From: a virus
Lineage: Duplodnaviria > Heunggongvirae > Uroviricota > Caudoviricetes
Virus record (IMG/VR): IMGVR_UViG_3300019845_000023
Span: 5,058-69,057 of that record
Direction: 5' to 3' (one strand)
Length of the DNA stretch: 64,000 nucleotides
Part shown: in pieces, positions 8,733 through 62,440 of the stretch
Layout: the number at the start of each line of letters is the position of its first letter
How positions within the stretch are numbered: the first letter of the stretch is position 1
The notes under the pieces: model-generated
Seen by the model: only the letters and a program-made list of their open reading frames with translations
Databases searched by the model: none
What the model was told of the DNA's origin: nothing
Made by a program: the position numbers and the translations under genes

Positions 8733-8763
8733 GATTTTTGTTTTTTGTTTTTCTTGGAGAAAT

Positions 8764-8838: not shown

Positions 8839-8841
8839 ATA

Positions 8842-19391: not shown

Positions 19392-19393
19392 TT

Positions 19394-19606
19394 TTATCTC
19401 TCCCTTATGTATTGCCAAAGCTGATTACCAGCTTTTAACATCGCTTTTATTTCTTTACTATTTTCAATTTGTTCTCTCTCTTCTGGAGTATAAAGCGACA
19501 TAGACCAGCCGCAGAAAGCGGGACTATCGCCTTCATCGAAATCATAATTAAATCTATCAATTATTATTTCGATTTCTTCTTTCGTGAGGTCAAGAGTTAC
19601 TTTCAT
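19394..19606 (-). CDS. hypothetical protein
   Basis: ORF track. Confidence 0.45.
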   Translation of the reverse strand: MKVTLDLTKEEIEIIIDRFNYDFDEGDSPAFCGWSMSLYTPEEREQIENSKEIKAMLKAGNQLWQYIRER

Positions 19607-37148: not shown

Positions 37149-37980
37149 TCTCATTCCTCCAGATTTCGTCGCTTAACGCACGCTTAATGATGAGGAATTT
37201 CTGCTCGTCCATACTGTCAAGAACAGACTGGTCAAAGTTTAGACCCTCTTCTCTGTACTTAGCGAGCCAAGCATCTGCCTCTTCAACGATACGCTTACCA
37301 AGGTCCTTAGCCTGAGCCGCAGAGTAGTTGATTTGTCTATCCTTAACACCAAGGATTTCACCCCAGTATCTCTGCATATTCAAGTCTGAACCCTTAAATG
37401 GGTTAAGAATGTACGCGTAGTCTTCCTGCTTAAATTTTGAAAGCATAGCAAGCAATCTCATTTCGTGAGAGAGCTGCTTTGAAGCATAACCGTACTTCTC
37501 GACTTCCTCGACCTGAACTGGATAAGGGTGGTCAAGAGCATTAAACTTTTCCTTAATCTGACCGACAATAGCCTTTAATGCAGACTCTTCATTTGCGTGT
37601 GCAATAGCGTCCCTATTAAGAATAAACCAGAACATAGGGCTGTAATCTGGATTTACCCAGAACCAGTCTGAGTAAAGAAGCTCAACAAAGTTTGAAGAAC
37701 CCTTCTTCCACTGGTCAACGATAAGACGAATGTCCTTAACATCGACCTGACCGTTGAAAGGCATTTCTTCAACATGGCTTACAGGCTTTGAGTTGAATAC
37801 AATATCCCTCAGTGAAGGAACGACAACTGCCTTGTAATCGTAGTCACTCTTAGGTCGTCTCAGATTGTAGTTCTGAGCACCGTATAGAGCGATAAAGATT
37901 ACATTAAAACCTCTTTTCTGAAGCTCCCTGACTGCAACGTGCATAAGCTCCTCTTCTGGCATTATCACTTTCTCGTCCAT
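37138..37980 (-). CDS. Pol-beta superfamily nucleotidyltransferase
   Basis: YGAQNYNLRRPKSDYDY = hG[GSA]x10SDhDh signature. Confidence 0.5.
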   Translation of the reverse strand: MDEKVIMPEEELMHVAVRELQKRGFNVIFIALYGAQNYNLRRPKSDYDYKAVVVPSLRDIVFNSKPVSHVEEMPFNGQVDVKDIRLIVDQWKKGSSNFVELLYSDWFWVNPDYSPMFWFILNRDAIAHANEESALKAIVGQIKEKFNALDHPYPVQVEEVEKYGYASKQLSHEMRLLAMLSKFKQEDYAYILNPFKGSDLNMQRYWGEILGVKDRQINYSAAQAKDLGKRIVEEADAWLAKYREEGLNFDQSVLDSMDEQKFLIIKRALSDEIWRNENVQ

Positions 37981-39967: not shown

Positions 39968-41431
39968 TTACTTCCAAGAATATACATCCTTAGAAAGTAT
40001 CTTGACCATAGCCTCATAAGCATTGCACTCGATGAGTTCTCTAAGGTCATTGAATGGACCTACACCAGAACCGCTGCAGTAACTGATGTTATCGTAGATA
40101 GTACCGATGTAGTTGTCCTGACGTGCCTCAACATTCCAGCTTACGACCTTAGTCTCAGGGAGACCAGCCTCGCGAAGCTTCTTGTTCCACTTACCGACAA
40201 TGGAGTCAGCAGTGTCTGGACGTACGTCGTAGTCGAACTGACCGTCTGATATAACTACAAGAGCCTTTGGAACCTCGCGGGTTCTTACAGCAGTCTTATA
40301 GATAAGCTCGAAAGCCTTATCAAGGTTAGTGTTGTAACCCATGTCAGTTGACATTACCTTTCTAAGACACTCCTCAAGTCCCCAGCTATCCTCGAGGGAT
40401 ATGAAGTGAGGATTGTTAGTGAATGTCATATAAAGGTTGTGGTATGCACCCTTATTACGCTGAGCGAAGTAAGTTGCAAGACCAACAGAAGTTGCCATAG
40501 GCTGACCTAACATGGAGCCAGATACATCTGCCATTACGACAACATCGTACTCTCCGCTAACGTAGTTAGGAAGAGCCTTCCACTGAGCTTCGTCTACAGG
40601 GTCAAGATGGTAACGAGAGCTACCATACATATACTTGTACACGATGTCGTATGGGTAAAGAGTAGAAGCATTTACCTTAGCCTCGCCCTTTTCAAGGGAA
40701 GCCTTGTAAGCTGCAAATCTCTCCTGACAACGCTTGTTGTAAGTCTTGATATATCTGCTCATTGCAACAGATGGAACAGACTGGAAGTCTATCTCATCCC
40801 ACTTACCAGCAGACATCTTTGTCTCGACGACGCCGATGTGTGCACGAAGCTTTGCAAGAGTCTTACGATATGTACGCTCGGTAAGACCGAGGTAACGACA
40901 AGCTCTACGACCAAGCTTACGAGTCTCCTGAGAAGAAGTATTGATAGATGGCATCCACTTAGCAAGGATGGAGATAGGCTGGTTCTTAGCCATACCCTCT
41001 GCATCAGCACGAAGCTGCTTGGAGATAAACTCCCATACCTTTGCCTCAATTACTGGATACTTTCCGTTAAGGAAGATGAAAAGGTCATCCCATCTACCTG
41101 TATCAACAATGGTCTGAAGATTGCGGACAATCTTCTGAGGGTCGATACGACCGAGTTCTGCAAGCAGAATACGACCGATACGTCTCTCACCAAGACCACA
41201 GTCTCTGATGTTACGAGCGTAAAGGATAAGGTTATCTGCAAGAGTAGGGTTCTCCTGTCTTGCTGCCTTCCAATCGCTGATTATAGCGGAAGCATCTCTC
41301 TTTCTCATACCACCTATCTTTGCATAGATGTCAAGAAGAGCGCCGCCGTTTGTTGAACTATATGCGAGTCCACCGTTTTCGGTAAGTGTCTGATTAGCCA
41401 TTGCCTTAGCTGCGTTTACGAAATTACTCAT
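39968..41431 (-). CDS. vWA-domain protein with large N-terminal domain (possible TROVE/Ro60-like)
   Basis: MIDAS motif DVSGSM; vWA fold at C-terminus; N-terminal helical domain; start at MSNF after GGAGAG RBS. Confidence 0.6.
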   Translation of the reverse strand: MSNFVNAAKAMANQTLTENGGLAYSSTNGGALLDIYAKIGGMRKRDASAIISDWKAARQENPTLADNLILYARNIRDCGLGERRIGRILLAELGRIDPQKIVRNLQTIVDTGRWDDLFIFLNGKYPVIEAKVWEFISKQLRADAEGMAKNQPISILAKWMPSINTSSQETRKLGRRACRYLGLTERTYRKTLAKLRAHIGVVETKMSAGKWDEIDFQSVPSVAMSRYIKTYNKRCQERFAAYKASLEKGEAKVNASTLYPYDIVYKYMYGSSRYHLDPVDEAQWKALPNYVSGEYDVVVMADVSGSMLGQPMATSVGLATYFAQRNKGAYHNLYMTFTNNPHFISLEDSWGLEECLRKVMSTDMGYNTNLDKAFELIYKTAVRTREVPKALVVISDGQFDYDVRPDTADSIVGKWNKKLREAGLPETKVVSWNVEARQDNYIGTIYDNISYCSGSGVGPFNDLRELIECNAYEAMVKILSKDVYSWK

Positions 41432-41470
41432 TACACATCTCTCCTTCAAGATAATTATTTTTGTTTGCTG

Positions 41471-42462: not shown

Positions 42463-42620
42463 ATGCTGCCCGAGACAGGAATCGAACCGTTACCCTCCGC
42501 CTTCTTCAGGCGGCGTGCACACCTATGCACTACAAGGGCAGTCTGGTCGGGGAGGATGGGATTCGAACCCACACTCATCGTGCTCCTAACGCATTAATTG
42601 AGTAGCTGACGTATCTTTAT
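42463..42620 (-). other. two degenerate tRNA-like segments (G33 loop, broken T-stem; 3' half without partner)
   Basis: partial cloverleaf elements only. Confidence 0.3.
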
Positions 42621-42696
42621 TGGTGCCGAGGGGGAGAGTCGAACTCCCTACGCCAAGCTCTTCAGGCTTGCGCTCTACCAGTTGAGCTACCTCGGC
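42621..42696 (-). tRNA. tRNA-Phe (GAA), second copy
   Basis: perfect acceptor; loop CUGAAGA. Confidence 0.6.
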
Positions 42697-42720
42697 ATTA
42701 TCAAGACAGTTATACTTATA

Positions 42721-42828
42721 AACTCTACCCGTTGAGCTACGCGACGCGAACGCCACGGTGGGATTCGAACCCACATCCCCCTTTGTGCAAAAAAGAAAAA
42801 GTTTTAAGTGTTTTGCTGAACTGCCTTA
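42721..42828 (-). other. orphan tRNA 5' half next to orphan T-arm/acceptor fragment
   Basis: GCGUCGCGUAGCUCAACGGGUAGAGU then UUAUAAG...UGUCUUGAUAAU. Confidence 0.3.
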
Positions 42829-42829
42829 T

Positions 42830-42906
42830 TGGTCGGGGCGGTGGGATTCGAACCCACAGAATCGTGATTTTGAGTCACGCACGTTTACCAGTTACGTCAC
42901 GCCCCG
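42830..42906 (-). tRNA. class-I-shaped tRNA with Leu anticodon CAA
   Basis: 5-nt variable loop; loop CUCAAAA; A73. Confidence 0.5.
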
Positions 42907-43033
42907 ATATAAAATGCAAAATATGAAGAGGATACCACACCCTGCAGAGGCCCATATTTATTTATATCCCGCACCATAAGCTTCTTCGCGCTTCAATCCG
43001 TCGACTGTCCTCATGGCCATCCGTGCGGTTTTC

Positions 43034-43109
43034 TGGGTGGAAAGATGAGATTCGAACTCACACCTTCATGGGCCACAACCATGCGCTCTACCATTAAGCT
43101 ACTCACCAC
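43034..43109 (-). tRNA. tRNA-His (GTG) with encoded G-1
   Basis: loop UUGUGGC; C73; extra 5' G. Confidence 0.6.
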
Positions 43110-43143
43110 ATCAATTCCGACTTTAACCCAAGTCGGCAGGGTT

Positions 43144-43176
43144 AAATAAAACCAAATCTGCCTCCACACAGTGGAG
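43144..43176 (-). terminator. rho-independent terminator inside tRNA array 2
   Basis: CUCCAC-UGU-GUGGAG then GCAGAUUUGGUUUUAUUU. Confidence 0.45.
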
Positions 43177-43216
43177 TTAGCTGTAGACAATAGCACTGAA
43201 CATAACTATTCCTACT

Positions 43217-43292
43217 TGGTCTCGGTTATAGGACTCGAACCTATGACTTTCTCCTTGTAAGGGAGACACTCTCGCCGCTGAGTTAAACCGAG
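43217..43292 (-). tRNA. tRNA-Val (TAC)
   Basis: loop CUUACAA. Confidence 0.65.
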
Positions 43293-43321
43293 ATTATCAA
43301 GACTCTCTATACCTTGCGGTT

Positions 43322-43394
43322 CCGGAAGGGGGATTCGAACCCCCATATGTACGATTTTAGGTCGTATGACTTAGCCACTTTGTCTATTCTGGAA
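43322..43394 (-). tRNA. class-I-shaped tRNA with anticodon TAA and C33
   Basis: loop CCUAAAA; no encoded CCA. Confidence 0.4.
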
Positions 43395-43541
43395 AGGAAT
43401 ATTGCTGAAGAGTCTTTATTTGGTTCGGGTATGCTTATCGGAGTCAAGTACTCGCAGTTCCTCTTTCGAGGTATTTTCTTCGGAGTAAAGACCTTAAGGT
43501 TCGCGTAACCTCTCGTGCCCTAACCCATATCCGAAACCCGA

Positions 43542-43618
43542 TGGTGCCGTTAGAGGGACTCGAACCCACACTAACCAGTTCCTAAGACTGGCGCCTCTGC
43601 CAATTGGGCTATAACGGC
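43542..43618 (-). tRNA. class-I-shaped tRNA with Leu anticodon TAG
   Basis: perfect acceptor; loop CUUAGGA. Confidence 0.5.
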
Positions 43619-43682
43619 ATTGTTAAACAGTTCGAGTTACGGTCAAACTGAAGGTAAGCACCGATTAAGCAGCCAGATACTC

Positions 43683-43913
43683 CTATTCAGAATAATCAAG
43701 CTTTTCAATTCTTTTCATATCGGAATATGTAACCTGCTTCCAACCACTCTTAGGGTGGTTAAAGGCACACATCCAGCAGGAACAATGAATTTTACCTTTG
43801 GCTAACTTTCCGTCGCAATCACAAAACCAATGATGAGTTTCATCAATGATATGTCTTTTGCGAGCTATGTGTTGTCTTCTCTGATAACGATAGTATGCTC
43901 TATCTCTTTCCAT
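43683..43913 (-). CDS. Cys/His-rich small protein
   Basis: ORF track; embedded in tRNA array. Confidence 0.4.
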   Translation of the reverse strand: MERDRAYYRYQRRQHIARKRHIIDETHHWFCDCDGKLAKGKIHCSCWMCAFNHPKSGWKQVTYSDMKRIEKLDYSE

Positions 43914-44053
43914 TGTGCCGCCCTCCGAAAAATTATAATAACGAATATAGGCAACCCACTACTTACTTTCCTTACCAGCGTAAATTAAGCACCTTCGCTA
44001 CGTATTGCTACTACCTCAGTATTTAATTTACTATGCCCTTCCCTCGATATTCG

Positions 44054-44575
44054 TTACTTAGTAATTCTGTTTGCGATACCAGAAGCAGCGTAGCTGTCTG
44101 GCTTGATAGCAACCTCGAAGCCGCAAGTCTTAATCCAAGAGGTAATCTCAGTAATAAGCTGATTTGTCTTACCTGCGTGACCAATGTCAGCGTGGACAGC
44201 GAAAGTAAATCTTCCGTCATTAGACATTTGCTCAAGGTCAATATCATAGTCGATAAGAGCATAAGCAAGAGCATCTACGAAACCTGTTGCGTTCTCAATA
44301 GAACGAGAAGTCTCTTCCTGTATCTTAGTCTTAAGAACTCTTATCTTTGGTATATCTTGCTTGCGATAGAAGAAAATGCCGCCATCACCGATACGGTGAA
44401 CAGCAATTACTTCCACCATTCTTGTGCACTTGTGGTTCTGGCTATCTGTACCCACAGTTATTTCGTATGAGGCGTTAGGTGCCTTTGCGATGTAGTCGGC
44501 TACAATAGAGCCTATCTGTGAATAACGAACCTTCTCACCATTACCACGAGTAAATATCTTCTCGGTAATCACGGT
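44054..44575 (-). CDS. hypothetical protein (possible RNase H-like fold)
   Basis: ORF; probable GTG start after AAGGAG. Confidence 0.4.
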   Translation of the reverse strand, partial: TVITEKIFTRGNGEKVRYSQIGSIVADYIAKAPNASYEITVGTDSQNHKCTRMVEVIAVHRIGDGGIFFYRKQDIPKIRVLKTKIQEETSRSIENATGFVDALAYALIDYDIDLEQMSNDGRFTFAVHADIGHAGKTNQLITEITSWIKTCGFEVAIKPDSYAASGIANRITK

Positions 44576-44728
44576 TAATCTCTCCTTTATATTCAAATAT
44601 TCAAGACAGTTATGTTAGCTACCTTTTGATTAAAATTCAAATGCTTTTAAAGAATTGCTGGACTGTCTTAGTGGTGATAATACGTGCCGCGGCACCACAG
44701 ACCGCTATATGTGGTCGCACGTATTCTC

Positions 44729-44815
44729 TGGTCGGCTCGGTGGGACTCGAACCCACACGCCCTTGCGGGCACCAGCTCCTTAGGCTGGCGCGTCTGCCAA
44801 TTCCGCCACGAGCCG
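44729..44815 (-). tRNA. tRNA-Leu (AAG), class II
   Basis: long variable arm GCCC-UUGC-GGGC; loop CUAAGGA. Confidence 0.55.
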
Positions 44816-44883
44816 ATTTATCAAGACTCATCTTGTGTTTTTATATGCCCAAAAAACTTTCAGAGTTGCTGCTGAGTCTTATC

Positions 44884-44960
44884 TGGTCGGAGATGCGGGA
44901 CTCGAACCCACGGCCTCTCGCTCCCAAGGCGAGCGCTCTACCAAACTGAGCTAATCCCCG
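44884..44960 (-). tRNA. tRNA-Pro (TGG), second copy
   Basis: loop CUUGGGA. Confidence 0.6.
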
Positions 44961-45030
44961 ATTAATTGGCGGCTTCAGGGACGCTACAAGATAACCAACC
45001 GCCAGAGTTATCACGCACTTAATGTCCCAA

Positions 45031-45107
45031 TGGTCGGCGAGATGGGATTCGAACCCACACTGAATGGATTTTAAGTCCATTGCCTCTGCCTGTTGCGCTA
45101 CTCGCCG
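45031..45107 (-). tRNA. class-I-shaped tRNA with Leu anticodon TAA
   Basis: perfect acceptor; loop CUUAAAA. Confidence 0.5.
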
Positions 45108-45174
45108 ATAAGCCTATTAAATAGGCTACAAGATATAACCCCTTTTACCGCGGGGCAGTCTCCCCAATATAATT

Positions 45175-45227
45175 GGTTGGGGAGATAGGAATTGAACCTA
45201 CAAAAGTGAGTTGCTGATATATCTTAG
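45175..45227 (-). other. orphan tRNA 3' fragment (T-arm plus acceptor CUCCCCA-A-CCA)
   Basis: GUAGGUUCAAUUCCUAU T-arm without a 5' partner. Confidence 0.3.
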
Positions 45228-45303
45228 TGGTCACGCCAGCGAGGCTCGAACTCGCATTTTAGCCTTGAAAGAGCTACTTCCTACACCTGTTAGAAGATGG
45301 CGC
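45228..45303 (-). tRNA. tRNA-Glu (TTC)
   Basis: loop CUUUCAA; Glu-like D region. Confidence 0.5.
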
Positions 45304-45324
45304 GATTCATCAAGATGTGCTTTT

Positions 45325-45400
45325 ACCTCTCATGAGGATTTGAACCTTACCGTCCCCTTTTTGGGGCTGTGCTACCAGATTACACCATAACGCCGAGAGG
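45325..45400 (-). tRNA. tRNA-like gene with atypical anticodon arm (CCCC-AAAAA-GGGG)
   Basis: good acceptor and T-arm; anticodon not assignable. Confidence 0.35.
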
Positions 45401-45456
45401 ATTTAAAATGGCGGCGTTAAAAACTTTAAAGAAAAAGTTGCTGACACATCTTTATT

Positions 45457-45530
45457 TGGTTGCGCAGACAGGACTCGAACCTATATCAACGGATAATGAC
45501 TCCGTTATGCTACCTTTGCACTACCGCGCG
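45457..45530 (-). tRNA. tRNA-Met-like (CAT) with C1-A72 mismatch (initiator-like?)
   Basis: stem ACGGA/UCCGU; loop GUCAUUA. Confidence 0.45.
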
Positions 45531-45539
45531 TTCTCTTTA

Positions 45540-45587
45540 TTTTCTATAATTATTATAGCATAAATTATAAAAAATGTCAAATTTTTG
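45540..45587 (-). promoter_or_regulatory. promoter block TTGACA-17-TATAAT within tRNA array
   Basis: AAATTTGACATTTTTTATAATTTATGCTATAAT. Confidence 0.6.
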
Positions 45588-46381
45588 ATTTCTAAGTCAT
45601 TTCGTAAGCACTCTCACCGCGTGAAGGTAGACTTAATTGAGAGTATTTCTTCAACAATCTTGGGTGCCGCCACATCTCCTGCACACAGGAGACAGGGTAC
45701 TCGAACCCCTCCATCGCCAGTTGCTGAAAGGAATTTCAACCTAATCTCATTAGTTATAAAGCCACTGAGCTGTAGCTATGCGAATAATTTGCCGCAATCA
45801 ACGGGCGACTATTCTAATCGCCGTCATAACCAACACAAGTTATGAACCATTGTAATGTCGTCAGGTTCCCACACTTACGCAGTAAACGCGCCGCTTAACC
45901 ACTTGGTTTAGGTATGTTCATAACCAAGAAATTTTCCCTTTTACATCGTCAGCAGTAGATGTCGTAATTTTATCGGTACTTCCCCGAATGGACATTGCGT
46001 GCCTATCGTACTCACGGTAATGTACGTAACCGCTGCCGTGCCAGCCAATACACGGATTTATACTGCCATCACACAGTCGGGCAGGTCTGTGATGGGTCTC
46101 TGCCCAATTTGGTTTTTGTGGTTTTAAACAGTCCAATGAGTAAACCTCAACTCAACTGTAGAGAATATTTGGTGGTTCGCTCTCTCTCAGCGAAGGTGTA
46201 AAGGGAGTTTAAACCACTTCCTCGTGGGGTTTTAACGTCTTTTCCTTGACAAGTCTCGCCGCAACCAGTACCATTTAAGGTACGCCAATCACTACGGGTT
46301 GCACATCCTTACTTTACCTGCCCAACAGGTCGGCGGTTGGACCCGCCAGTGTCCCTTTTATTCTCTTTAAGTAATTGGCAA

Positions 46382-46456
46382 TGGTGTGGGATAGGAGAAT
46401 CGAACTCCCACCGCCTGTTTGGAAGACAGGAATACTGACCGTTATACGAATCCCAC
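46382..46456 (-). tRNA. tRNA-Gly (TCC)
   Basis: perfect acceptor; loop CUUCCAA. Confidence 0.7.
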
Positions 46457-46469
46457 ATTAGTTCTTATT

Positions 46470-46518
46470 TTTAAGTATAATTTATTATAACATATTCTAA
46501 GAAAAAAGTCAAATTTTT
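46470..46518 (-). promoter_or_regulatory. promoter block variant within tRNA array
   Basis: TTGACT-17-TATAAT. Confidence 0.55.
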
Positions 46519-46528
46519 AATAGTGATT

Positions 46529-46654
46529 GTCTTTGTAGGGGTCTGTCTTCTTCTTATCATGGGTTGCGGCGATGATGTCTGGCATAACCTCTATGAGCTT
46601 CCAAAGAAGTACGGTTACGCAAACAACTATTAGGTACTGCATCAGACAGACCTC
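46529..46654 (-). CDS. small membrane peptide (41 aa)
   Basis: hand translation; AAGGAGG RBS. Confidence 0.35.
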
Positions 46655-46666
46655 CTTTCAAGACAT

Positions 46667-46743
46667 TGGTTTCTCCGCTTGGATTCGAACCAAGGAATGG
46701 CAGTTTTAGAGACTGCTGTCTTAAGCCTCTTGACGACGGAGAA
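46667..46743 (-). tRNA. amber suppressor tRNA (anticodon CTA), Glu/Gln-type body
   Basis: perfect acceptor UUCUCCG/CGGAGAA; stem GCAGU/ACUGC; loop CUCUAAA; D-arm UCGUCAAGAGGCUUAAGACA. Confidence 0.65.
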
Positions 46744-46747
46744 TTAT

Positions 46748-46822
46748 GGTTGCCGCTCTGGGAATCGAACCCAGTAAGACGGAGTTAGAGTCCGTTGTCC
46801 TCGCCAACTAAACGAAGCGGCA
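46748..46822 (-). tRNA. amber suppressor tRNA (anticodon CTA), Glu-type body
   Basis: perfect acceptor UGCCGCU/AGCGGCA; stem ACGGA/UCCGU; loop CUCUAAC. Confidence 0.65.
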
Positions 46823-46907
46823 AAATTCTCCAAGACGCCTTTACATTTACCTTTTAAACATTTTAAGTGTTCTATTGTAAGAAATGATTGCAGGATGCGT
46901 CTTTCAT

Positions 46908-46955
46908 TCTTATAAAATAATTATAACATATTTTATAAAAATTGTCAAATTTTTG
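46908..46955 (-). promoter_or_regulatory. promoter block variant
   Basis: TTGACA...TATAAT. Confidence 0.5.
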
Positions 46956-46963
46956 AGTGCTTA

Positions 46964-47227
46964 TTAGTCTACAGCAGTTGTAGTAGTTGTCTCTGTTGTA
47001 GTCTCTTCTGCCTCAGTTTCTGTGGTAGTAGTTGTTTCTTCGGTAGCCTCAGTTGTCTCCTCTGCTACTGTTGTAGCTTCAGTTGTTTCAGCTTCTGTTG
47101 TTTCAACTTCTGTTGTAACTACTGTTGTGGTTTCACTGTTGCTTCCGCTATCCTTTGATGTATCGCAAGAAACAAAAGTTACAGCCATAGCGCCTGCCAT
47201 AAGACAAGCTAAAATAGCCTTCTTCAT
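46964..47227 (-). CDS. Thr/Glu-rich lipoprotein
   Basis: signal peptide with lipobox-like Cys. Confidence 0.5.
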   Translation of the reverse strand: MKKAILACLMAGAMAVTFVSCDTSKDSGSNSETTTVVTTEVETTEAETTEATTVAEETTEATEETTTTTETEAEETTTETTTTTAVD

Positions 47228-47580
47228 TGTGTTTCACCTCTTTGCTTTTTAAATAAGAACCCTTGCTTGTATATCGAAACCTCGTATTATATCCACAGTC
47301 ACATCGTGATTTACTCCCACACAAGAGGGCTACCATGGAGAAGGGGCACGCCCCGAGATGGGCGGCAATAATCATAGAACGCTATACGAAAAGCATAACG
47401 TACTAAGGAACTCTTTCCACACGTGGTGGATGAGCTATCGTATTTCTACGACCCCGCACAGCGGGTAGAAGTCATAATGACCTCTTAACAGTAATTTTGA
47501 TTGAGCCGCGTTTCCTCTTTTAAGTCTGACTAACTGCGGTAAAAAATCCAGACTTCAAAATTACTTTTAAGAAATCATTA

Positions 47581-47675
47581 TGGCGCGGTCGGGGAGACTC
47601 GAACTCCCACACCGATTGCTCGATTACTCATAGTTTAGCAAACTACTGCCTTACCAAATTAGGCTTACGACCGCA
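47581..47675 (-). tRNA. tRNA-Ser (GCT), class II
   Basis: perfect acceptor; loop UUGCUAA; long variable arm. Confidence 0.55.
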
Positions 47676-47807
47676 TTATCAAGATACGTTTTTTCGATAT
47701 ACGTTGTTCTACCAGTTGAACTACTCCGCCATATTGGCGACGGAGGCAGGACTTGAACCTACACCTACGGCGTGATAGGCAATCTATTGCTTGCTGACGT
47801 ATCTTAG
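47676..47807 (-). other. orphan tRNA 5' half with leader module plus orphan 3' fragment
   Basis: GGCGGAGUAGUUCAACUGGUAGAAC...AAAAAACGUAUCUUGAUAAU; T-arm GUAGGUUCAAGUCCUGC. Confidence 0.35.
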
Positions 47808-47809
47808 TT

Positions 47810-47887
47810 TGGTGTGCCTGATGGGACTCGAACCCATGACCCCCTGATTAAAAGTCAGGTGTTCTATGCCAACTGAACTACAGGCAC
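47810..47887 (-). tRNA. tRNA-Lys (TTT)
   Basis: perfect acceptor; loop CUUUUAA. Confidence 0.7.
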
Positions 47888-47986
47888 ATTAACATCCGCT
47901 GAGCATCTTATTGGAACGCTTTCACCATGCGAGACCTCTATTGTTTATTTGCTGGCAGAATTTGAACCATTAACCATAGCGAATAT

Positions 47987-48062
47987 TTGGTGGGACGCCT
48001 GAGATTCGAACTCAGATAAGCTCGGTTATGAGCCGAGTGCACTAACCATTGTACTAACGTCC
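47987..48062 (-). tRNA. tRNA-Ile2/Met (CAT), Ile-derived body
   Basis: anticodon arm CUCGG-CUCAUAA-CCGAG parallels tRNA-Ile(GAT) at 5981. Confidence 0.55.
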
Positions 48063-48119
48063 CATTAAAGAAAGGAAAGGGGCATACTTTCAAGATGGCT
48101 ATGCCAGACCACTAAGTTA

Positions 48120-48193
48120 TTGGCTTCGGCAAAGGGAGTCGAACCCCTATCAACAGAGCCAAAATCTGTTGTCCTACCATTAGACGATACCGA
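48120..48193 (-). tRNA. tRNA-Gln (TTG)
   Basis: loop UUUUGGC; D region shared with Gln(CTG) at 4532. Confidence 0.6.
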
Positions 48194-48222
48194 AATCTAT
48201 GGAGTCATAAAGACTCCAAATA

Positions 48223-50783: not shown

Positions 50784-51278
50784 TTAACCAGTAATAGCTT
50801 CCTCTATACCACCTGGTGTAGTCTCAACTTCGTCATCAAGCTCATCAGCAAGCTCTTTAATCTGAGCCTGAATGAGTCCACGCTGATGTTCAAGTATTGT
50901 CTTGACTGTTGCAGCATAGCTGCCGTCTGCCCAGTCCTTAATCTCCGCGTCAATATTACCAAAGTTAAAGCTTGTATCGCCAACCTTAATAATGACATCC
51001 TTCTTCTTTGTTTCAAGGTTCTCAAGCATACGATTAATCATCGCAGCCTTCTTAGAGAGCTTGCAAATCTGTGCTTCCTTACTGTTCTTTCCTGGCTCTG
51101 GCTCAGGTTCTGGCTGAGGAGGGAAAGGAGGGAAAGGAGGAGGAGGACATGGAGGAACTGGAGGGAATGGATAATCTGGTGGCATTGGAGGGAATGGAGG
51201 GCAAGCTGGTCCTAAGTACATACCAACGTCGCCGCACTTACAGCCGTTCTTTTTAGAATAATCTGGATACTGATACAT
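50784..51278 (-). CDS. Pro-rich hypothetical protein
   Basis: ORF; PPxP repeats. Confidence 0.5.
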   Translation of the reverse strand: MYQYPDYSKKNGCKCGDVGMYLGPACPPFPPMPPDYPFPPVPPCPPPPFPPFPPQPEPEPEPGKNSKEAQICKLSKKAAMINRMLENLETKKKDVIIKVGDTSFNFGNIDAEIKDWADGSYAATVKTILEHQRGLIQAQIKELADELDDEVETTPGGIEEAITG

Positions 51279-51396
51279 ATCAGAGTTCTAAGGCTTATCA
51301 ATATTTGGCATTAAAATTCCCCCTATAAATAAATTAGGGTATCCGAAGATACCCTTCTTATATAAGGTAAAAATTGCCTTTGGGAATTATAATCTT

Positions 51397-52320
51397 TTAG
51401 TGCGCCGCCTTATCAGCTTCGTGAAGACGCTCAAGGTCACGCATAAAGTCTGCACTATAACGAGCTGCCATCTTCTCCATATACTTCTCGCCCTTGTAGT
51501 GGTCCATATGGTGGTTGATTAAAAGAACGATATAGTGATTACGGTCAGAGCAACCAGTATGAGATAAGTAGAAGTATGCTCCTACATTCTCATGGTTATA
51601 GAAGTGTGCCTCTTCTGTAGGGTTGTTGCGAGCGTCGTGATAAACCTTGCAGTAAGGCTTACCAATATCGTGGAAGAGTGCCGCAGTTCTTACTAAGTCA
51701 GAACGAGTTGAGTCTCTTACTGTCTTATTCATCTCGTCAACGATATACTTCTCTGCCGCTCTCATATGTGCGCCGATAGTTAAAGAGTGGTGATGATTAT
51801 CGTGAGGGATATTATCAGCTTCGAAAAGCATTTCTCCTATTACATCGAAGTTATTATCATTACCGAAAGTCATTATCTTATCCCAACCCTCAGAGTAGTC
51901 AGGTACCTCGAAGCTTCTAAGCATACGGTCGAGAACGAACTCAGGAACGACACGCTCACGGGAAGCATTACGCTCCTTTACAACCTCGAAAGGAGGTACG
52001 CAAAGAACGCATATCTTTACAAGGTCAGGTATCTTAGATAACTCCTTTAAGAAGCCTATACGACGCTTAGCATTGACGTTTGTTGCGTCATAGTAAACAT
52101 CGACATTAGCCTTTAAAAGGTCGCGAGTACGAGTTAACATTAAGTTGAATACTTCTGCGTTATGAGTCTGGTCATTAACGTCTCCAAATACGTCCTGCCG
52201 TATCTGGTCAGAAGATACATAAGCTGCTTCAGAGAAGTAAGCCTTATATAAAGTAGACTTACCAGAGCCAGGGAGTCCTACAGTGAAAAATAATCTTGGC
52301 ATATTTAGTCTCCTTTCCAT
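51397..52320 (-). CDS. polynucleotide kinase fused to an HD phosphohydrolase
   Basis: N-terminus LFFTVGLPGSGKST...SSDQIRQDVFG matches T4 Pnk kinase; C-terminal H..HD motifs. Confidence 0.65.
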   Translation of the reverse strand: MERRLNMPRLFFTVGLPGSGKSTLYKAYFSEAAYVSSDQIRQDVFGDVNDQTHNAEVFNLMLTRTRDLLKANVDVYYDATNVNAKRRIGFLKELSKIPDLVKICVLCVPPFEVVKERNASRERVVPEFVLDRMLRSFEVPDYSEGWDKIMTFGNDNNFDVIGEMLFEADNIPHDNHHHSLTIGAHMRAAEKYIVDEMNKTVRDSTRSDLVRTAALFHDIGKPYCKVYHDARNNPTEEAHFYNHENVGAYFYLSHTGCSDRNHYIVLLINHHMDHYKGEKYMEKMAARYSADFMRDLERLHEADKAAH

Positions 52321-55307: not shown

Positions 55308-55360
55308 ACTTTTATAATAATATTATACTATAAAATATAAAAAAAGTCAAAGCTTTTTTA
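55308..55360 (-). promoter_or_regulatory. promoter block; -35 lies inside a terminator hairpin
   Basis: same motif. Confidence 0.5.
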
Positions 55361-55369: not shown

Positions 55370-55395
55370 TTCTTAAATCAGTTTTCATTTGCTTC

Positions 55396-55710
55396 CTAAT
55401 TAGAAGTATCTTCGGCAGGCGTTGCTTCTGAGAAATTAAGGAAGAGACTGTCGTCAATACAATTGACTATTTTTGTAACTCTACCTCCCTCATCTACATC
55501 AAACTGAACAACCTGTCCATTGAGGTTTTCCCAGTTTGGTGTGTCTGCCGCCTGAAGGATACCTGCGATTCCATTTAAGTCTTGTATTATAATTGGACCT
55601 ACGGGATAATGCTGCTCTTTAGTTGCAACTACAAGCTATACTCCCATTACCCATTCGTCACCGTTCTTTGCAAGTCCAAGATATGTACCAGTAATCTTAC
55701 CATTCATCAT
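55396..55710 (-). CDS. hypothetical protein read through an in-frame TAG at codon 25
   Basis: ATG 55710 with AAGGAGG RBS; TAG 55636-55638; 80 further sense codons with no internal start; terminal TAG 55396. Confidence 0.45.
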
Positions 55711-55725
55711 TAGAAAATCTCCTCC

Positions 55726-56436
55726 TTAGAAAATTGTTTCTTTACTATCATCTGCAATCATACGCACATCATCGTAAAGGATTATTCCGTCTGGAGTTAC
55801 CTTATCAACGTGGTAATGACCACAATAATGTTGTTTATAAATAGTTTCATTTAAAACCTTATCAAGCATAAGGTCAGATACAGTAGATTTGAAACCAAGA
55901 AAGTTACAAATCTTTGAGCCGCCAGTGTGAGAAAAGACATAATCTACTGTGCCGCGATAGCAAGAAAGATTAGCCTTTGCTATCTCAACTTCTTCCTCTG
56001 TTATTTGCTCCTGCTCCCACCAAGAGGTATGTGGATGACGATAACGCTTACCGTCAATAAATATATCGTGTGAGTCTGCCCCATTCATAACAAGACAATC
56101 CTGACCACACAGATGATATATTTTACCAGTCATAGCGTAGTAGATAGAATCAGAAACTTGATAGCACTCTTCGCCGCCGAATGTAGTGGTAGGAAGCTGT
56201 TCAATTCTGTCGTAGTTCTCGTGATTACCAAGGACACAGAAAGTTGTCCAAGGCTTATCGTTCAAAAACTTTTGCCAAAATCTCTCCTGAGAACTATCAG
56301 CCCAAATGAAACCTGCGTCTCCCATTATGACAAGAATATCTTCTTTAGTCAAATCATTACATTTAAAATGGCGGCTATTTAATTTTGACATATCGAGACC
56401 ACCGTGGGTGTCTCCTGTGACAAATAATCTTGCCAT
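55726..56436 (-). CDS. metallophosphoesterase
   Basis: GDTHG...MGDAGF...GNHE motifs. Confidence 0.6.
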   Translation of the reverse strand: MARLFVTGDTHGGLDMSKLNSRHFKCNDLTKEDILVIMGDAGFIWADSSQERFWQKFLNDKPWTTFCVLGNHENYDRIEQLPTTTFGGEECYQVSDSIYYAMTGKIYHLCGQDCLVMNGADSHDIFIDGKRYRHPHTSWWEQEQITEEEVEIAKANLSCYRGTVDYVFSHTGGSKICNFLGFKSTVSDLMLDKVLNETIYKQHYCGHYHVDKVTPDGIILYDDVRMIADDSKETIF

Positions 56437-56874: not shown

Positions 56875-57906
56875 TTATCCCTTTCTGATGTTATATCCAT
56901 ACTGGTCGGAGTGATAAAATTCTATCCAGTATTTTTCTTTTTCGGTCTGTTCTTCTTTTGGGCAAACCTCTACGATTTCCCAAGTGAAGTTCTCCAAACC
57001 TTCTTTGAACATAGCGTCATAGATTTGACCAGCTATTCGTTCAATATTACAGCCGCGCTTAGCATGGGTACGCCAACGGTCTATAAACTTTGTTGTTTTA
57101 CCAATATAAACTTTTTCATCATTTATATTAGTAATCTTATAAATGCCGCCCTTATCTTTCTTGTCACCAAGAACTCGTTTAAAGAGCTCCTCTATTTGAG
57201 TTTTATAGTAAGTCTCATATAGGAGTTTATAAAAGATTTCTGGACGGGAGAAGCCAGGTGCCATAGACTTTAACTTAGCTATATCTGAAAGAGTTAAAGT
57301 ATCGAGAGTAATGTGATAGAAGTCGCGTTGCTTACGAACTTCCTCATCTTTCTTAAACTAAGCTACGATTGCCGCCTGTCTTTGTTCAAAGGCTTTAATT
57401 TCTTCAGTCAACGCCGCCTTTTTCAAATTTATTTCGTCGCTGAACGTCTAAAAATTTACAGCCAACTGCTCCTTATCTTTCTCATATTGAGCCTGAACAC
57501 CAGCTATCTTCTTTTCTCGTTCTGCTGTCGCCGCGGCAACGATTTCAGCATTTTCTTTTTGACGCTCAAGTTCAGCTTCCCTATCCATTTTAGCATACTC
57601 TTCACGAGTTGCTATATATTGTGCGTCAAGTCTTTGTACATCGGTATTATATTGAGCTTTCTTCTCTTCGAGCATACAGGTGTATTCTCTTAATGATGCC
57701 TGTTTTCCTGCAATCTCCTTTTGGATTTCATCCGTCATTTCCTTGACGGCGGCATCTTTCTTCTCAATAAGTCCTTTCTTAACTTTCTCCTATTCGGAAG
57801 AAAACTTTAGCTTACCTTTAAGAGACTTAACCGATAGAATATCGCAGACGGCATATGTAATGCCGCCACACACGATACCAAGTAATATGACCAATATCCA
57901 TATCAT
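56875..57906 (-). CDS. TM helix, coiled coil and GIY-YIG nuclease fusion read through three in-frame TAG codons
   Basis: ATGA overlap at 57906; TAGs at 57790-57792, 57448-57450, 57358-57360; no TAA/TGA over 344 codons; GIYKITN..YIGKT motif in C-terminal part. Confidence 0.5.
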
Positions 57907-58232
57907 TCAGTATTCACCCCTGAAGCTAAATCAATTCCCACTATAAATGGATATTGAGCAGATAGATTATAACCATGTCCATCTTTACATTGGGAGTTAA
58001 ATTTCTTGATATAAAAACTACGCCACTCATTTAATTTTTCGTTTGGAAATTCTCCTATTATATAAAATAGAAAATTCTCTTTCCCATACTTTTCCATTTC
58101 GTTGAGAAGTAAAGGATTTTCTTTTATTTCTTCTTTAATATAATGGCGATATATGATTTTAGGACTTTCAATTGTTTTACCCACATATATCTTTCCATTA
58201 ATTAAATTTTTAAGATAGTATAAGTATCCCAT
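57903..58232 (-). CDS. GIY-YIG homing-endonuclease-like protein
   Basis: YLYYLKNLINGKIYVGKT. Confidence 0.6.
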   Translation of the reverse strand: MGYLYYLKNLINGKIYVGKTIESPKIIYRHYIKEEIKENPLLLNEMEKYGKENFLFYIIGEFPNEKLNEWRSFYIKKFNSQCKDGHGYNLSAQYPFIVGIDLASGVNTE

Positions 58233-59053
58233 TACTCCATTTCAGCTCCACAGTCTGGGCAGTACTTAGTTTTCTCCTGAAATGCTCCTTCACATTCTGA
58301 ACACCAGTAATATGTACACATACCACTTGGAGTACTATCGTGCATTTTAGCCCATTCATATACATCTATCCAGCGACCCTTTGGACGCCAAGTAAATTCC
58401 TTAATAGGCTTATGTCTACCGCAGCAATCCTTTGCGCTTTCTGGACAAGCCTTAATCTGTCCTGCTTCACACTTAGGCACAAGAACAGTAGAAAGTATTG
58501 CCTTTTCTTCATCAGAAATCTGTCGTGCCGCCAAGACCTCTCTTGTCATACCATTGGCAACCTCATGGATTTCCTTTGAAGCTCTGCTACACATACGCTC
58601 ATTACAGAAGTGCATAAACGCTCTTAAATTAAAAGTAATATAGATTACTGTTGGAGTAGCATTAGGAAGAACGTCACGAGCATCTTCGGTTCTTACTCCT
58701 TTACCAATCATTAGTTTATACTCAGCAAGAGCATTGTCGCAGTAATAACTGAGTTCTTCTTTAAGTTCTGCTGGTACTCCATCTAATGCCCAGTCTAAAT
58801 CATCGTAAGTTACATAGCGCTGAGACTGTTGTGAATATGAAGCGATTCTATGTCTTACAATCTGATGAGAACAAACTCTTGAAATTCCTTCTACCCTAAA
58901 AGTAAATGAGCAATGTTCAAGAACAGAATGATGCCCCGAACGAATACAACCCTTTATAACATTAAGGTCAGGTTCACTATCATAACAAGCTGCTGCCGCC
59001 TCAGCACAAACATATAACGGATTAGGTGTATATCCTACAAGTGTTACTTTCAT
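58232..59053 (-). CDS. thyX: FAD-dependent thymidylate synthase ThyX with Cys-rich C-terminal extension
   Basis: RHRIASYSQQSQRY = ThyX RHRx7S motif. Confidence 0.7.
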   Translation of the reverse strand: MKVTLVGYTPNPLYVCAEAAAACYDSEPDLNVIKGCIRSGHHSVLEHCSFTFRVEGISRVCSHQIVRHRIASYSQQSQRYVTYDDLDWALDGVPAELKEELSYYCDNALAEYKLMIGKGVRTEDARDVLPNATPTVIYITFNLRAFMHFCNERMCSRASKEIHEVANGMTREVLAARQISDEEKAILSTVLVPKCEAGQIKACPESAKDCCGRHKPIKEFTWRPKGRWIDVYEWAKMHDSTPSGMCTYYWCSECEGAFQEKTKYCPDCGAEME

Positions 59054-59821: not shown

Positions 59822-60322
59822 TTAGATAGTGCGGAAGTGGTTATATTTTCCATCTCCCCACCATTGGTTGCAAGTCCAGCCTGCAAATGTGTCGGGGTTG
59901 TTAAAGTAATAATCTACAGCGTCTGCCATCGCTGAGTAATGGATTGAGCCGCCGCAGAAATAATCTGAATATTTATTAAATCCCCAAGGAGCACAAGTCT
60001 GGTCGAGTACTGCTTCAACCGAACCAGGCCAACGAGAATCATTTACCATATTCATTACTGAAGCTACGATTTTTGCTCTTTCGTAGACATCAGGCATTCC
60101 ACCGTATTCACTTGCGACAATCTTGCAAAGCAATGTGTAATCATAATCGCTAACTACAGGAGCGGTTGCATTGCTTACATACGGATTTACTATTTCTAAA
60201 TTTGGATTACATTCGCTACATTTTCTACACTCAATATCGTTTGTATCTGTGATTTCATAACAAGTTGAATCAACCCAGTGACAAGTTGACTTATGTATAT
60301 AGTGTGTACTTGGTTTGTACAC
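59822..60322 (-). CDS. SleB-like cell-wall hydrolase (candidate lysin)
   Basis: Cys-rich N-terminus; RWPGSVEAVL..QF..W motif. Confidence 0.4.
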   Translation of the reverse strand: MYKPSTHYIHKSTCHWVDSTCYEITDTNDIECRKCSECNPNLEIVNPYVSNATAPVVSDYDYTLLCKIVASEYGGMPDVYERAKIVASVMNMVNDSRWPGSVEAVLDQTCAPWGFNKYSDYFCGGSIHYSAMADAVDYYFNNPDTFAGWTCNQWWGDGKYNHFRTI

Positions 60323-60346
60323 TGTGTACTCTCTTGGTGTCTCTGC

Positions 60347-60757
60347 CTATGTTGGTGCCGCTTCAGTAACTTCGGCAGTTGTTACTGGTGCCGCCGGCTC
60401 AGTTTCTTCAACTGAGGAAGTGGATGTGCTTGTGAGTGTTGTAGTTGTGGATGTGCTTGTGAGCGAAGTTGTGGATGTGCTTGTGGTTGTAGTTGAGGTA
60501 ACAGTGGTAGCTGTTGTGACTGGAGTTGTTGTAACTACTGTTGTAGTTGTTGACTCAGTTATTTCAGTAACCATTGCCGCCTTTACTGGCAGGTTTGTGC
60601 CGTGAGCTTTGTCAGTTCTTACCACGGTAGGTGTCGCTAAACAAAGCACGACAGCAGCTGCAAGAACTGCTGTCGCAACCTGAATTGTTCTTTTTACAGT
60701 TATTTTCATTATAAATTCCTCCTTTTCGTCCTTGCGGACTATGAGGGGAACACGCAT
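60347..60757 (-). CDS. Thr-rich secreted (mucin-like) protein
   Basis: signal peptide; (T/S/V) repeats. Confidence 0.45.
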   Translation of the reverse strand: MRVPLIVRKDEKEEFIMKITVKRTIQVATAVLAAAVVLCLATPTVVRTDKAHGTNLPVKAAMVTEITESTTTTVVTTTPVTTATTVTSTTTTSTSTTSLTSTSTTTTLTSTSTSSVEETEPAAPVTTAEVTEAAPT

Positions 60758-60824: not shown

Positions 60825-61325
60825 TCATACTGAAATATCATTTTCAATTAAATCATCGAAGCCCCAAAAGACAATTCTTAATTTTTCTTCGGTAATATGA
60901 GCACAGTATCCTCGAACCCCTCTTACTGGAGTATGAAAAATAGCTGTGTAAACTACACCTTTTATTATTTCTTGTTCAGAATAAAGTTCTTTTAGTTCTT
61001 CAAGAATTTCAAGGTAATCATCTGGATTACTTAAATCATCATATGTGGATAAGTAATTTAATGCTACTGCAAACACGTCAAATGGCTCAGCCAAACCAAT
61101 AAAGGTACGTGGCTCTATTATAGGAACTTGTGCAAAGTATTCAGTAGGAATATCTACCTTAAACCCCGCTTCTCTTAGTTGCTTTTTAACTAAAGCAAGT
61201 AGAATAACTTTTTCTCCTTCTGATAAATTAAACATCGGAGTTTTACATTCTACCAAAGCCATATGTGCCGCGAGAGCAATTTCTATTACATAGTCCTCAT
61301 TATCACATAATACTTTCGTTTTCAA
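60825..61325 (-). CDS. hypothetical protein
   Basis: ORF track. Confidence 0.5.
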   Translation of the reverse strand: MKTKVLCDNEDYVIEIALAAHMALVECKTPMFNLSEGEKVILLALVKKQLREAGFKVDIPTEYFAQVPIIEPRTFIGLAEPFDVFAVALNYLSTYDDLSNPDDYLEILEELKELYSEQEIIKGVVYTAIFHTPVRGVRGYCAHITEEKLRIVFWGFDDLIENDISV

Positions 61326-62440
61326 AACTCAATCATCTCCGTGGTGGACTTATCAAAGATTCTGCCCGCCTCGGCTGATTTCGGAAGTGCTCTGTGACCT
61401 TTCTTAGTTCTTGGAGCAATAGCATTACACCAATATAATGCGTTCTCTGCTCTTGTTGCTGCGACGTATGAGATTTTACGTTCCTCTTCATTATAGAGAC
61501 GTGCGCCTGTAACAATTACATTTTTATTTTCAAGACCTTTAGCTGAATGAATAGTGAGAACCTTAACACGATTACTTGTTAAAAGTGCTGCGAGTTCATC
61601 CAAATCAAGGTCTCCCTTTTTAAAGGTGACGTTTGGAATTTTTCTACTGTTTAAAATATCCTGTGCCGCCGCAAGCTCATTATTGGTTCTGGTTAATATA
61701 AACCAAGAACCCCAGTTCTGTGAAAGCTCCAGTTCTTCAAGAGCTTCAATAAACGGCATACGCTCTTCTTTTCCTTCAAGAATACCTACCCTCGTTTTAA
61801 CTGGCATTGAACTTGGACTTAGCTTTGTGTAAGAGTCCAAGAAACTTTCTGCAAAGCGAACAATGTTTGGTGCATTGCGGTAGTTTTCAGTTAAGTAATA
61901 TTTTTTGAAATCGGTATCTTTCCACATAGAAATTAGGTATTCATCTGTACAACCTCGGAAGCCGTAGATAGCTTGTCTGTTATCTCCTACGAAAAAGATA
62001 TTTTCGGTTGGAATTTTCATTAAAAATTGATATTCCAGAGGGCTTAAATCCTGACACTCATCAATAAGTAAATGCTTGATTTTAGGAAACTTTGAAGAAG
62101 GTATCTTTACTGCCCTTAGAAGAATAGCATCAAAGTCATAATCGTCAAGATACTTTTGAGTATCAATGCCGTTAATAGTACAAATCTTATTACCATAAGA
62201 ATGGATAGTACCGATAAAAGCTCCTGATGCCGCCCCGCCTATACGACGTTTCATTTCATCAGCCGCCATATTAGTAAATGATATTGCAACTATATCTTGT
62301 GGAAAAACATTTTTTTCTTCTATTAGAACTCGAACCCTTTCAGTTAAAACTCTTGTCTTTCCGCAGGCTGCGGTTGCGAGGCATAGTATTTTAGGCTCTT
62401 CAGCATAAATAACTTTCTTTTGTCTTTCATTAAAATTCAT
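61322..62440 (-). CDS. UvrD/PcrA-like SF1 helicase (short form)
   Basis: Walker A AACGKT, LLIDECQD, IYGFRG, TIHSAKGLE. Confidence 0.65.
   Translation of the reverse strand: MNFNERQKKVIYAEEPKILCLATAACGKTRVLTERVRVLIEEKNVFPQDIVAISFTNMAADEMKRRIGGAASGAFIGTIHSYGNKICTINGIDTQKYLDDYDFDAILLRAVKIPSSKFPKIKHLLIDECQDLSPLEYQFLMKIPTENIFFVGDNRQAIYGFRGCTDEYLISMWKDTDFKKYYLTENYRNAPNIVRFAESFLDSYTKLSPSSMPVKTRVGILEGKEERMPFIEALEELELSQNWGSWFILTRTNNELAAAQDILNSRKIPNVTFKKGDLDLDELAALLTSNRVKVLTIHSAKGLENKNVIVTGARLYNEEERKISYVAATRAENALYWCNAIAPRTKKGHRALPKSAEAGRIFDKSTTEMIEF

Follow-up and report, generated by a model that had tools for sequence, protein, structure and literature searches.

The stretch of phage DNA analysed here, 64,000 nucleotides long and called the window throughout (positions 5,058 to 69,057 of IMG/VR record IMGVR_UViG_3300019845_000023), carries on its minus strand a small gene at 55378-55710, the target gene below, whose reading frame contains TAG at codons 25 and 105. 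Comparison with related genes indicates, with a probability we put at roughly 0.88, that both TAGs are read as sense and that the product is a protein of 110 amino acids (aa). TAG very probably means glutamine in this phage, and the mechanism appears to be codon reassignment by two phage tRNA genes with CUA anticodons, tRNA(CUA), located 8.5 kb downstream, and not context-dependent leaky readthrough. Judged by its sequence, the window appears to derive from an uncultured, jumbo-like phage rich in tRNAs, in which TAG has been reassigned from stop to Gln (genetic code 15), a kind of phage that has already been described.

The target gene, its two TAG codons and its product

An earlier sequence-only reading of this DNA had described a ribosome-binding site (RBS), AAGGAGG, in front of an ATG ATG start at 55710, a TAG as codon 25 at 55636-55638, a second TAG at 55396 and a TGA five sense codons beyond it. 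All of these are present when the minus strand is read, the second TAG being codon 105 and the TGA codon 111. The long sense stretch without Met that it reported after TAG25 is there too; it consists of 79 codons (26-104) between the two TAGs, with 5 more between TAG105 and the TGA. Direct reading of the target gene finds no in-frame ATG, GTG or TTG past codon 25, and the open reading frame (ORF) listing has none of at least 30 aa in the target frame downstream of TAG25. Re-initiation past TAG25 was considered and ruled out, as none of these three start codons is available in frame. The features of the gene and its flanks, all on the minus strand, are as follows.

55378..55710, minus strand: coding sequence, 110 sense codons plus TGA; the start is the first ATG, 55710-55708
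55721..55727, minus strand: Shine-Dalgarno sequence AAGGAGG, read directly, with a 10-nt spacer to the ATG
55710-55705, minus strand: tandem ATG ATG start, with 22 further sense codons before TAG25
55636..55638, minus strand: in-frame TAG, codon 25, putatively read as sense (Gln), in the middle of predicted beta-strand 2
55396..55398, minus strand: in-frame TAG, codon 105, putatively read as sense and possibly a partial stop; it opens the last 6 residues of the acidic tail
55378..55380, minus strand: true stop TGA, codon 111; TAA in related loci L001, L007, L008 and L009
55340..55374, minus strand: intrinsic terminator, a 15-bp hairpin and T-run beginning 4 nt past the TGA, its sequence kept in all related loci
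55322..55350, minus strand: sigma-70-like promoter TTGACT-17-TATAAT (11/12), serving the next gene (ATG 55292) and kept in related loci

The plus strand of the window, where no gene is modelled, contains 59 ORFs of at least 100 codons by chance (41% GC), so an open stretch of 80 codons is unremarkable and the case for the target gene therefore rests on comparative evidence. When the readthrough product was searched against 5.8 billion proteins, ten homologues of 110 aa were found (73-92% identity, 100% query coverage), all with Q at columns 25 and 105. The contigs that carry them do not yield those proteins under translation table 11. At the DNA level, codons 25 and 105 are TAG in each of the 7 distinct close sequences, whose codon 111 is TAA or TGA, so the Q of the database proteins results from code-15 gene calling of TAG. 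Related loci of up to 20 kb each, numbered with an L, were taken from ENA and Logan metagenome assemblies (STEW18, TONG22, PRJEB10338). Substitutions between the window and L001 number 1, 0 and 6 at codon positions 1, 2 and 3 upstream of TAG25 and 9, 12 and 32 downstream of it; they fall mostly on third positions on either side, indicating purifying selection on both parts in one and the same frame.

A profile search of 1.84 billion representative proteins added about 20 remote relatives, mostly stand-alone proteins of 103-118 aa that align from residue 1 to about 100, across the position of TAG25. PHROG 30930, of unknown function, matches residues 9-94 with profile positions 25-109 of 118 at a modest E-value of 3e-5. 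The homologues begin M-[MIKLV]-N, which backs the ATG at 55710 as the start. Three of these relatives were traced to DNA. More distant orthologues in L012 and L013 (51% identity) and in L014 and L015 (40%) are syntenic, with the order Thy1, GIY-YIG, 87 aa, Metallophos, target, 85 aa, and a relative on the short contig L016 translates under the standard code. The absence of the downstream frame from homologues had been named as a finding that would count against decoding of TAG25; the frame is kept in 13 syntenic orthologues of 110-117 aa and 40-92% identity. Searches by megablast with the 10 kb around the gene and by tblastn with the product against 50,697 GenBank phage records gave no match, and a degenerate-pattern scan of IMG/VR for the target protein gave no confirmed relative.

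Column 25 is occupied by TCA in L012 and L013 and by CAG in L014, L015 and L016, and in the remote relatives the residue is S, L, A or Q, so the residue at this position is not critical. By this comparison TAG25 is the younger of the two TAGs, fixed in the close clade with CAG or TCA outside it. The two parts of the gene evolve as one protein, relatives span residue 25, and orthologues have CAG or TCA there; the earlier claim that the only plausible product requires TAG25 to be decoded is borne out. At column 105 every one of the 13 syntenic orthologues has TAG, even at 40% identity; L016 has GTT, and its protein continues past this column as an acidic tail, …EVEELKDVEVVEE. In character it is like the sequences that follow the TAG in the recoded genes (EANEN, EEKEN, GENINE, EVLQGELVEE…) and like the acidic C-terminal ends of remote relatives that lack the TAG; with TAG105 as Q, the target product would end in IVNCIDDSLFLNFSEATPAEDTSN-Q-EANEN. 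The likeness of the tails and the stop at codon 111 point to a product of 110 aa ending at the TGA at 55378-55380, and not, as had been proposed, to a frame ending at the second TAG with a product of 105 aa.

A confident AlphaFold model (pLDDT 85.4), built from a deeper alignment, shows a five-stranded OB barrel and supersedes a first, mediocre model from a shallow alignment (pLDDT 67), which gave no significant Foldseek match in BFVD or PDB. Both models place residue 25 inside beta-strand 19-29, in the middle of strand 2 of the OB fold, and the N-terminal 24 aa are modelled as only part of a beta-hairpin in a single domain. The product is thus predicted to be a single-domain OB-fold protein with a disordered acidic tail, and we see an even chance that it binds nucleic acid, specifically single-stranded DNA (ssDNA). 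Neither Pfam nor NCBIfam has a family for it, and the best PDB sequence match (E 0.22) was not significant. Its closest known counterparts include small ssDNA-binding proteins that combine an OB fold with an acidic C-terminal tail, such as PrgE of plasmid pCF10. The target shares, in its model, the five-stranded OB barrel of SSB and PrgE-like proteins and does not belong to the SSB family by sequence. Its OB-like domain of about 100 aa also occurs in 9 tandem copies in a protein of 2624 aa (P0017) and in 5 in one of 1003 aa (P0029), both from other metagenomes; Pfam gave only summed weak matches on these two, with no significant stretch.

At the upstream border of the gene, the stop codon of the Metallophos gene (TAA 55726-55728) overlaps the target RBS, TAAGGAGG. 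The AAGGAGG is kept in L004, L008, L009 and L010, and L001 and L007 carry AGAGGGGG. In L001 (about 9984-10004) and L007 the Metallophos stop is TAG, and a code-15 call there extends the gene by 6 codons, so that it overlaps the start of the target in an ATGA. This TAA-to-TAG change is an example of a tolerated stop change. At the downstream border, the -35 hexamer TTGACT of the next gene sits in the descending arm of the terminator hairpin, an overlap of terminator and promoter that is kept in all related loci.

Suppressor tRNAs and the reading of TAG

The two tRNA(CUA) genes form a tandem pair.

46747..46822, minus strand: amber suppressor tRNA 1, anticodon CUA, found with ARAGORN; Rfam tRNA 53.4 bits, full length
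46667..46743, minus strand: amber suppressor tRNA 2, anticodon CUA, found with ARAGORN; Rfam tRNA 55.4 bits, full length

Both match the general tRNA covariance model over their full length, so both have a canonical cloverleaf, and they are 66% identical to each other. The pair is found in every related contig that reaches far enough (L001, L004, L005), identical or 1 nt different, on contigs whose proteins differ by 10-25%. Both tRNAs have U1-A72, G10, A73 and an encoded CCA, as do the two tRNA-Gln genes of the window. U35 and U1-A72 are known Gln identity features. Suppressor 2 has the same acceptor stem (UUC...GAA) and A73 as the tRNA-Gln(CUG) of the window, and its anticodon loop, CU-CUA-AA, differs only in the change of G36 to A. 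Compared over their whole length, the suppressors are not distinctly nearest to tRNA-Gln; only the acceptor stem, the discriminator base and the anticodon loop point to Gln. A gene for tRNA-Gln(UUG) lies 1.3 kb from the pair.

Orthologous genes from the window and five to seven related loci were aligned, giving 33 columns that contain TAG, 6 of them with TAG in every sequence. About 24 TAG columns are variable and alignable, and in these the partner codon is CAG or CAA only in 12 and partly so in 5 more, in a gene set where Gln accounts for only about 3% of the codons. The other partners, TAT, GAG, TCG and TGG, are one-step neighbours of TAG, as would be expected if new TAG mutations are tolerated. 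In the target gene itself, codon 33 is CAG in the window and TAG in L008.

Recoding is sparse. The genes of the window contain 14 in-frame TAGs in 14,992 codons, against 91 CAA and 329 CAG, so that TAG makes up 3.2% of Gln-class codons; the two other frames of the same gene set contain 251 and 113 TAG trinucleotides. For each of the 95 modelled genes a TAA (75 genes) or TGA (20) is available as the stop. In five genes, the target included, a TAG precedes that stop by 1-11 codons, and for the two examined, the target and g50092, orthologues indicate that the tail is coding; those of g50092 have TAT in place of the TAG, followed by a conserved tail. TAG lies well inside the frame in five genes: the target, the GIY-YIG gene at 56875-57906, and the genes at 35742-37154, 50784-51311 and 59822-60757. 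The third of these is a minus-strand ORF of 470 aa with TAGs at codons 12 and 59, a Met-rich C-terminus and no Pfam match; the fourth has TAG at codon 8, kept in 6 taxa, and the fifth TAG at codon 137, with CAG or CCA in relatives. A Pfam scan covered about 18 proteins of the window, many of the largest among them, and all in-frame TAGs lie outside the Pfam-matched stretches, so a Codetta-style inference from Pfam columns is not applicable. Counting TAG as sense raises the coding density of the window from 68.0% to 70.7% (ratio 1.04), below the gain of at least 10% by which a jumbo-phage survey recognised code-15 recoding (PMC13037316). The window looks like a region of early or DNA-metabolism genes.

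It is improbable that TAG is decoded as an amino acid other than Gln, be it pyrrolysine, Ser, Leu, Tyr, Trp, Lys or Glu. Pyrrolysine is suggested by ARAGORN, which labels both tRNAs 'Pyl' but prints this for any tRNA with a CUA anticodon. The architecture of tRNA-Pyl is atypical among tRNAs. The window shares with the pyrrolysine system the reading of UAG by a dedicated tRNA(CUA), and differs from it in its canonical, full-length cloverleaf tRNAs, in the alignment of TAG with Gln codons, and in that no pylS, pylBCD or other pyl gene is among its annotated genes (about 18 of 95 proteins scanned against Pfam). Other amino acids might be read from the columns that pair TAG with TAT, TCG, TGG or GAG, from the TCA of L012 at column 25, and from tRNA bodies that are not clearly closest to tRNA-Gln. 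CAG and CAA are nevertheless by far the commonest partners of TAG, and Gln identity agrees with U1-A72, G10, U35 and with an acceptor stem and anticodon loop of the tRNA-Gln(CUG) type. For TAG-recoded phages, published work reports TAG-to-Gln only, with Gln confirmed by mass spectrometry in crAss-like phages, and explains it by amber suppressors charged with Gln (bioRxiv 10.1101/2021.08.26.457843; PMC9523058).

We consider it more improbable still that TAG25 is a genuine stop, of a pseudogene or of a gene for a 24-aa peptide only, with the downstream frame open by chance or kept for non-coding reasons. The standard-code ORF does have just 24 codons, one JGI protein (P0011) was called under code 11 as a 64-aa fragment, and open stretches of 80 codons do arise by chance. 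These points are outweighed by the coding-type substitutions downstream of TAG25, by protein identities of 73-92% between independent assemblies, by relatives that lack a TAG there and are full length, by the modelled fold, in which 24 aa amount to only part of a hairpin, by the presence of suppressor tRNAs, and by the fixation of the same TAG in 7 distinct sequences, which is not expected of a decaying pseudogene. A pseudogene or a sequencing error was rejected on the recurrence of the same TAGs in independent assemblies and on the coding substitution pattern. Just as improbable is leaky, context-dependent readthrough by near-cognate tRNAs of the host, of the Q-beta A1 or MuLV gag-pol type and independent of the phage tRNAs. 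The conserved bases after the TAGs (TAG-CT at codon 25, TAG-GA at codon 105) speak for it; against it stand the dedicated, conserved tRNA(CUA) genes in the same genome, the occurrence of in-frame TAGs in many genes and varied contexts, and the consideration that inefficient readthrough so early, at codon 25 of 110, would squander most of the effort of translating a structural domain.

With both TAGs decoded as Gln by the suppressor tRNAs of the phage, the reading we prefer, expression would run as follows. The target closes a same-strand string of DNA-metabolism genes, in which Thy1, GIY-YIG, 87-aa and Metallophos genes precede it and the terminator follows; terminator and synteny are observed, and the string would be co-transcribed. 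Ribosomes would start at the AAGGAGG and the homologue-supported ATG at 55710, and UAG25 and UAG105 would be decoded by the conserved tRNA(CUA) pair, charged with Gln by host enzymes, as codon comparisons, tRNA features and the literature suggest. Suppression in vivo would be efficient. Translation would terminate at the UGA at 55380-55378, in line with the conserved stop position, and transcription would end at the hairpin directly behind it. Where suppressor tRNA is limiting, release factor 1 (RF1) of the host would stop translation after 24 aa, which could delay production, and competition by RF1 at codon 105 could give forms with and without the tail; both of these ideas are speculative.

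Conserved TAG sites

Many TAGs are young: only one or two close relatives have them, at sites that are CAG or CAA in the others. A few are old. Among six close taxa, 6 of 6 Gln-class columns with TAG in the window are invariant, as against 26 of 48 with CAG and 16 of 30 with CAA. A deeper comparison used the window, L012 and L014, between which synonymous sites are near saturation (three-way codon identity of 46% at conserved two-fold amino acids). Twelve columns are Gln-class in all three lineages; 3 of 3 TAG columns are TAG throughout, as compared with 4 of 9 CAA/CAG columns that are invariant. The three deep-conserved columns are codon 105 of the target and codons 39 and 153 of the GIY-YIG gene. 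TAG accounts for 11-14% of Gln-class codons in the five genes of this comparison, and TAG-to-CAG is a single transition, as is CAA-to-CAG. By rough estimate three all-TAG columns would be rare under neutral drift (expectation about 0.03), which suggests selection for TAG itself at some sites. We regard this as a lead and not a result, given the few numbers and lineages and the low complexity of the tail.

The conserved TAGs belong to particular genes. None is conserved in frame in the Metallophos, 87-aa and 85-aa genes of the loci compared, if the Metallophos stop of L001 and L007 is set aside, and Thy1 has one sporadic TAG (L004). The GIY-YIG gene (56875-57906, minus strand) encodes 343 aa with TAG at codons 39, 153 and 183, all in a coiled-coil-like N-terminal part that precedes the nuclease domain (residues 252-333); every orthologue, down to 71% identity, keeps TAG at codons 39 and 153.

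A possible refinement of Gln decoding, which we hold only tentatively and think rather unlikely, is that these TAGs are selected as conditional stops. TAG25 would then tie synthesis of the protein to the build-up of suppressor tRNA, which would gate it in time within a polycistronic unit, and TAG105 would give isoforms of 104 and 110 aa through RF1 competition. This would fit the TAG columns unchanged across near-saturated lineages (3 of 3, against 4 of 9 for CAA/CAG) and the invariance of the window TAG columns in the six taxa nearer to it (all 6, compared with about 54% of CAA/CAG columns). Young CAG-to-TAG changes are frequent, so the supply of mutations is not the limit; S, L, A and Q all occur at column 25, so Gln is not required there; and the conserved TAGs are gene-specific inside one gene string. 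A published model also proposes recoding as an expression timer, but it covers late structural and lysis genes and not DNA-metabolism genes. The idea is further weakened by the small base of three deep lineages and very few sites, with taxa that are not independent, by the loss of TAG25 beyond the close clade, and by the low complexity of the C-terminal tail, which makes its alignment uncertain. Somewhat less likely again is the fuller version, in which certain TAGs maintained as TAG would form, with the tandem suppressors, a gene-specific translational switch on non-structural genes in a polycistronic unit, TAG25 gating the OB-fold protein and TAG105 setting the ratio of forms with and without the acidic tip.

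Genomic setting and related systems

The window has 40.8% GC and contains 44 tRNA genes in two arrays and a tmRNA, all on the minus strand; a codon-usage gene model gives 95 genes, again all on the minus strand. Recognised products belong to DNA and RNA metabolism or are homing-type nucleases, and include Thy1, a UvrD-like helicase, Metallophos, GIY-YIG, HNH, two RNA ligases, AAA_33/HD, SPFH/flotillin and VWA/DUF2828 proteins. No capsid, terminase, portal, structural or lysis gene was recognised among the proteins of the window scanned against Pfam, and no structural or lysis gene in the fetched 20-kb loci. The helicase is closest to that of Clostridium phage Amboise (35.6% identity). The sample labels, which as we read them point to studies of cattle rumen, suggest that the phage is probably from the rumen, and our guess from promoters, RBS and the nearest phage helicase is a Firmicutes-like host.

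With the code-15 phages described from gut and rumen (Borges et al., bioRxiv 10.1101/2021.08.26.457843; Peters et al., PMC9523058; PMC13037316) the window shares in-frame TAG in conserved genes, phage tRNA(CUA), alignment of TAG with Gln, TAA and TGA as the apparent terminators, a host that presumably uses the standard code, and a tRNA and DNA-metabolism region in which most genes have no recoded codons. It differs from them in its very sparse recoding (14 TAGs, 4% density gain), in that the recoded genes seen are non-structural (OB-fold, GIY-YIG) and not capsid or lysis genes, in a suppressor that is a tandem pair, and in TAG sites kept across deep lineages. The supE-type amber suppressors of E. 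coli, tRNA-Gln with a CUA anticodon, share this anticodon with the tRNAs of the window, of which suppressor 2 has the acceptor stem and discriminator base of the phage tRNA-Gln(CUG) and nearly its anticodon loop. The tRNAs of the window are, unlike these, phage-encoded, present in two diverged copies and apparently used to decode conserved in-frame TAGs systematically instead of rescuing mutations; their charging with Gln is likely.

The two tRNA arrays, at 2884-8918 and 42465-48194 (minus strand), cover nearly all amino acids, with duplicates for Asp (three), Met (four) and Leu (six). Between them lies the tmRNA at 12482-12827 (minus strand), with the tag peptide ADYAIAA. Two RNA ligases (T4 Rnl1-like and PF09414) and AAA_33/HD and AAA_33 proteins are encoded at 18261-19418, 33373-34305, 51397-52320 and 11934-12464, and together resemble a set for RNA or tRNA repair, in a phage with many tRNAs. 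In L010, at 16981-17054, ARAGORN reports a tRNA with a four-base anticodon, aaag ('tRNA-???'), which could be degenerate or resemble a frameshift suppressor.

Among the other genes, the UvrD-like helicase has 372 aa in the window (61322-62440), L001, L009 and L010, and 724 aa with a LAGLIDADG_3 domain in L004-L006 (2226-4400 or 2636-4810), which looks like an intein or homing-endonuclease insertion polymorphic in the clade. The Thy1 (ThyX) protein of the window (58232-59053) is 94% identical to that of L004 and 26-29% identical to those of L001 (7060-7809), L012 (4867-5649) and L014 (1407-2156), although the flanking genes are 71-98% identical, suggesting replacement of Thy1 by a distant homologue. 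A 525-aa SPFH/Band 7-flotillin protein is encoded at 31200-32777 (minus strand) and a 493-aa DUF2828/VWA protein at 39968-41449.

For annotation of the target gene and its neighbours, TAG must be called as sense, as under code 11 the target gene is reduced to a 24-aa stub and the GIY-YIG gene to fragments. With a density gain of only about 4%, such genomes or regions could be missed by density-based screens, and low-level TAG recoding may be underestimated. The target gene defines a small, uncharacterised OB-fold family, relatives of PHROG 30930, whose domain is found alone in phage proteins and in 5-9 tandem copies in giant proteins. With conserved TAGs in particular genes of one string and a near-invariant suppressor pair nearby, the lineage offers a compact test of recoded stops as expression timers.

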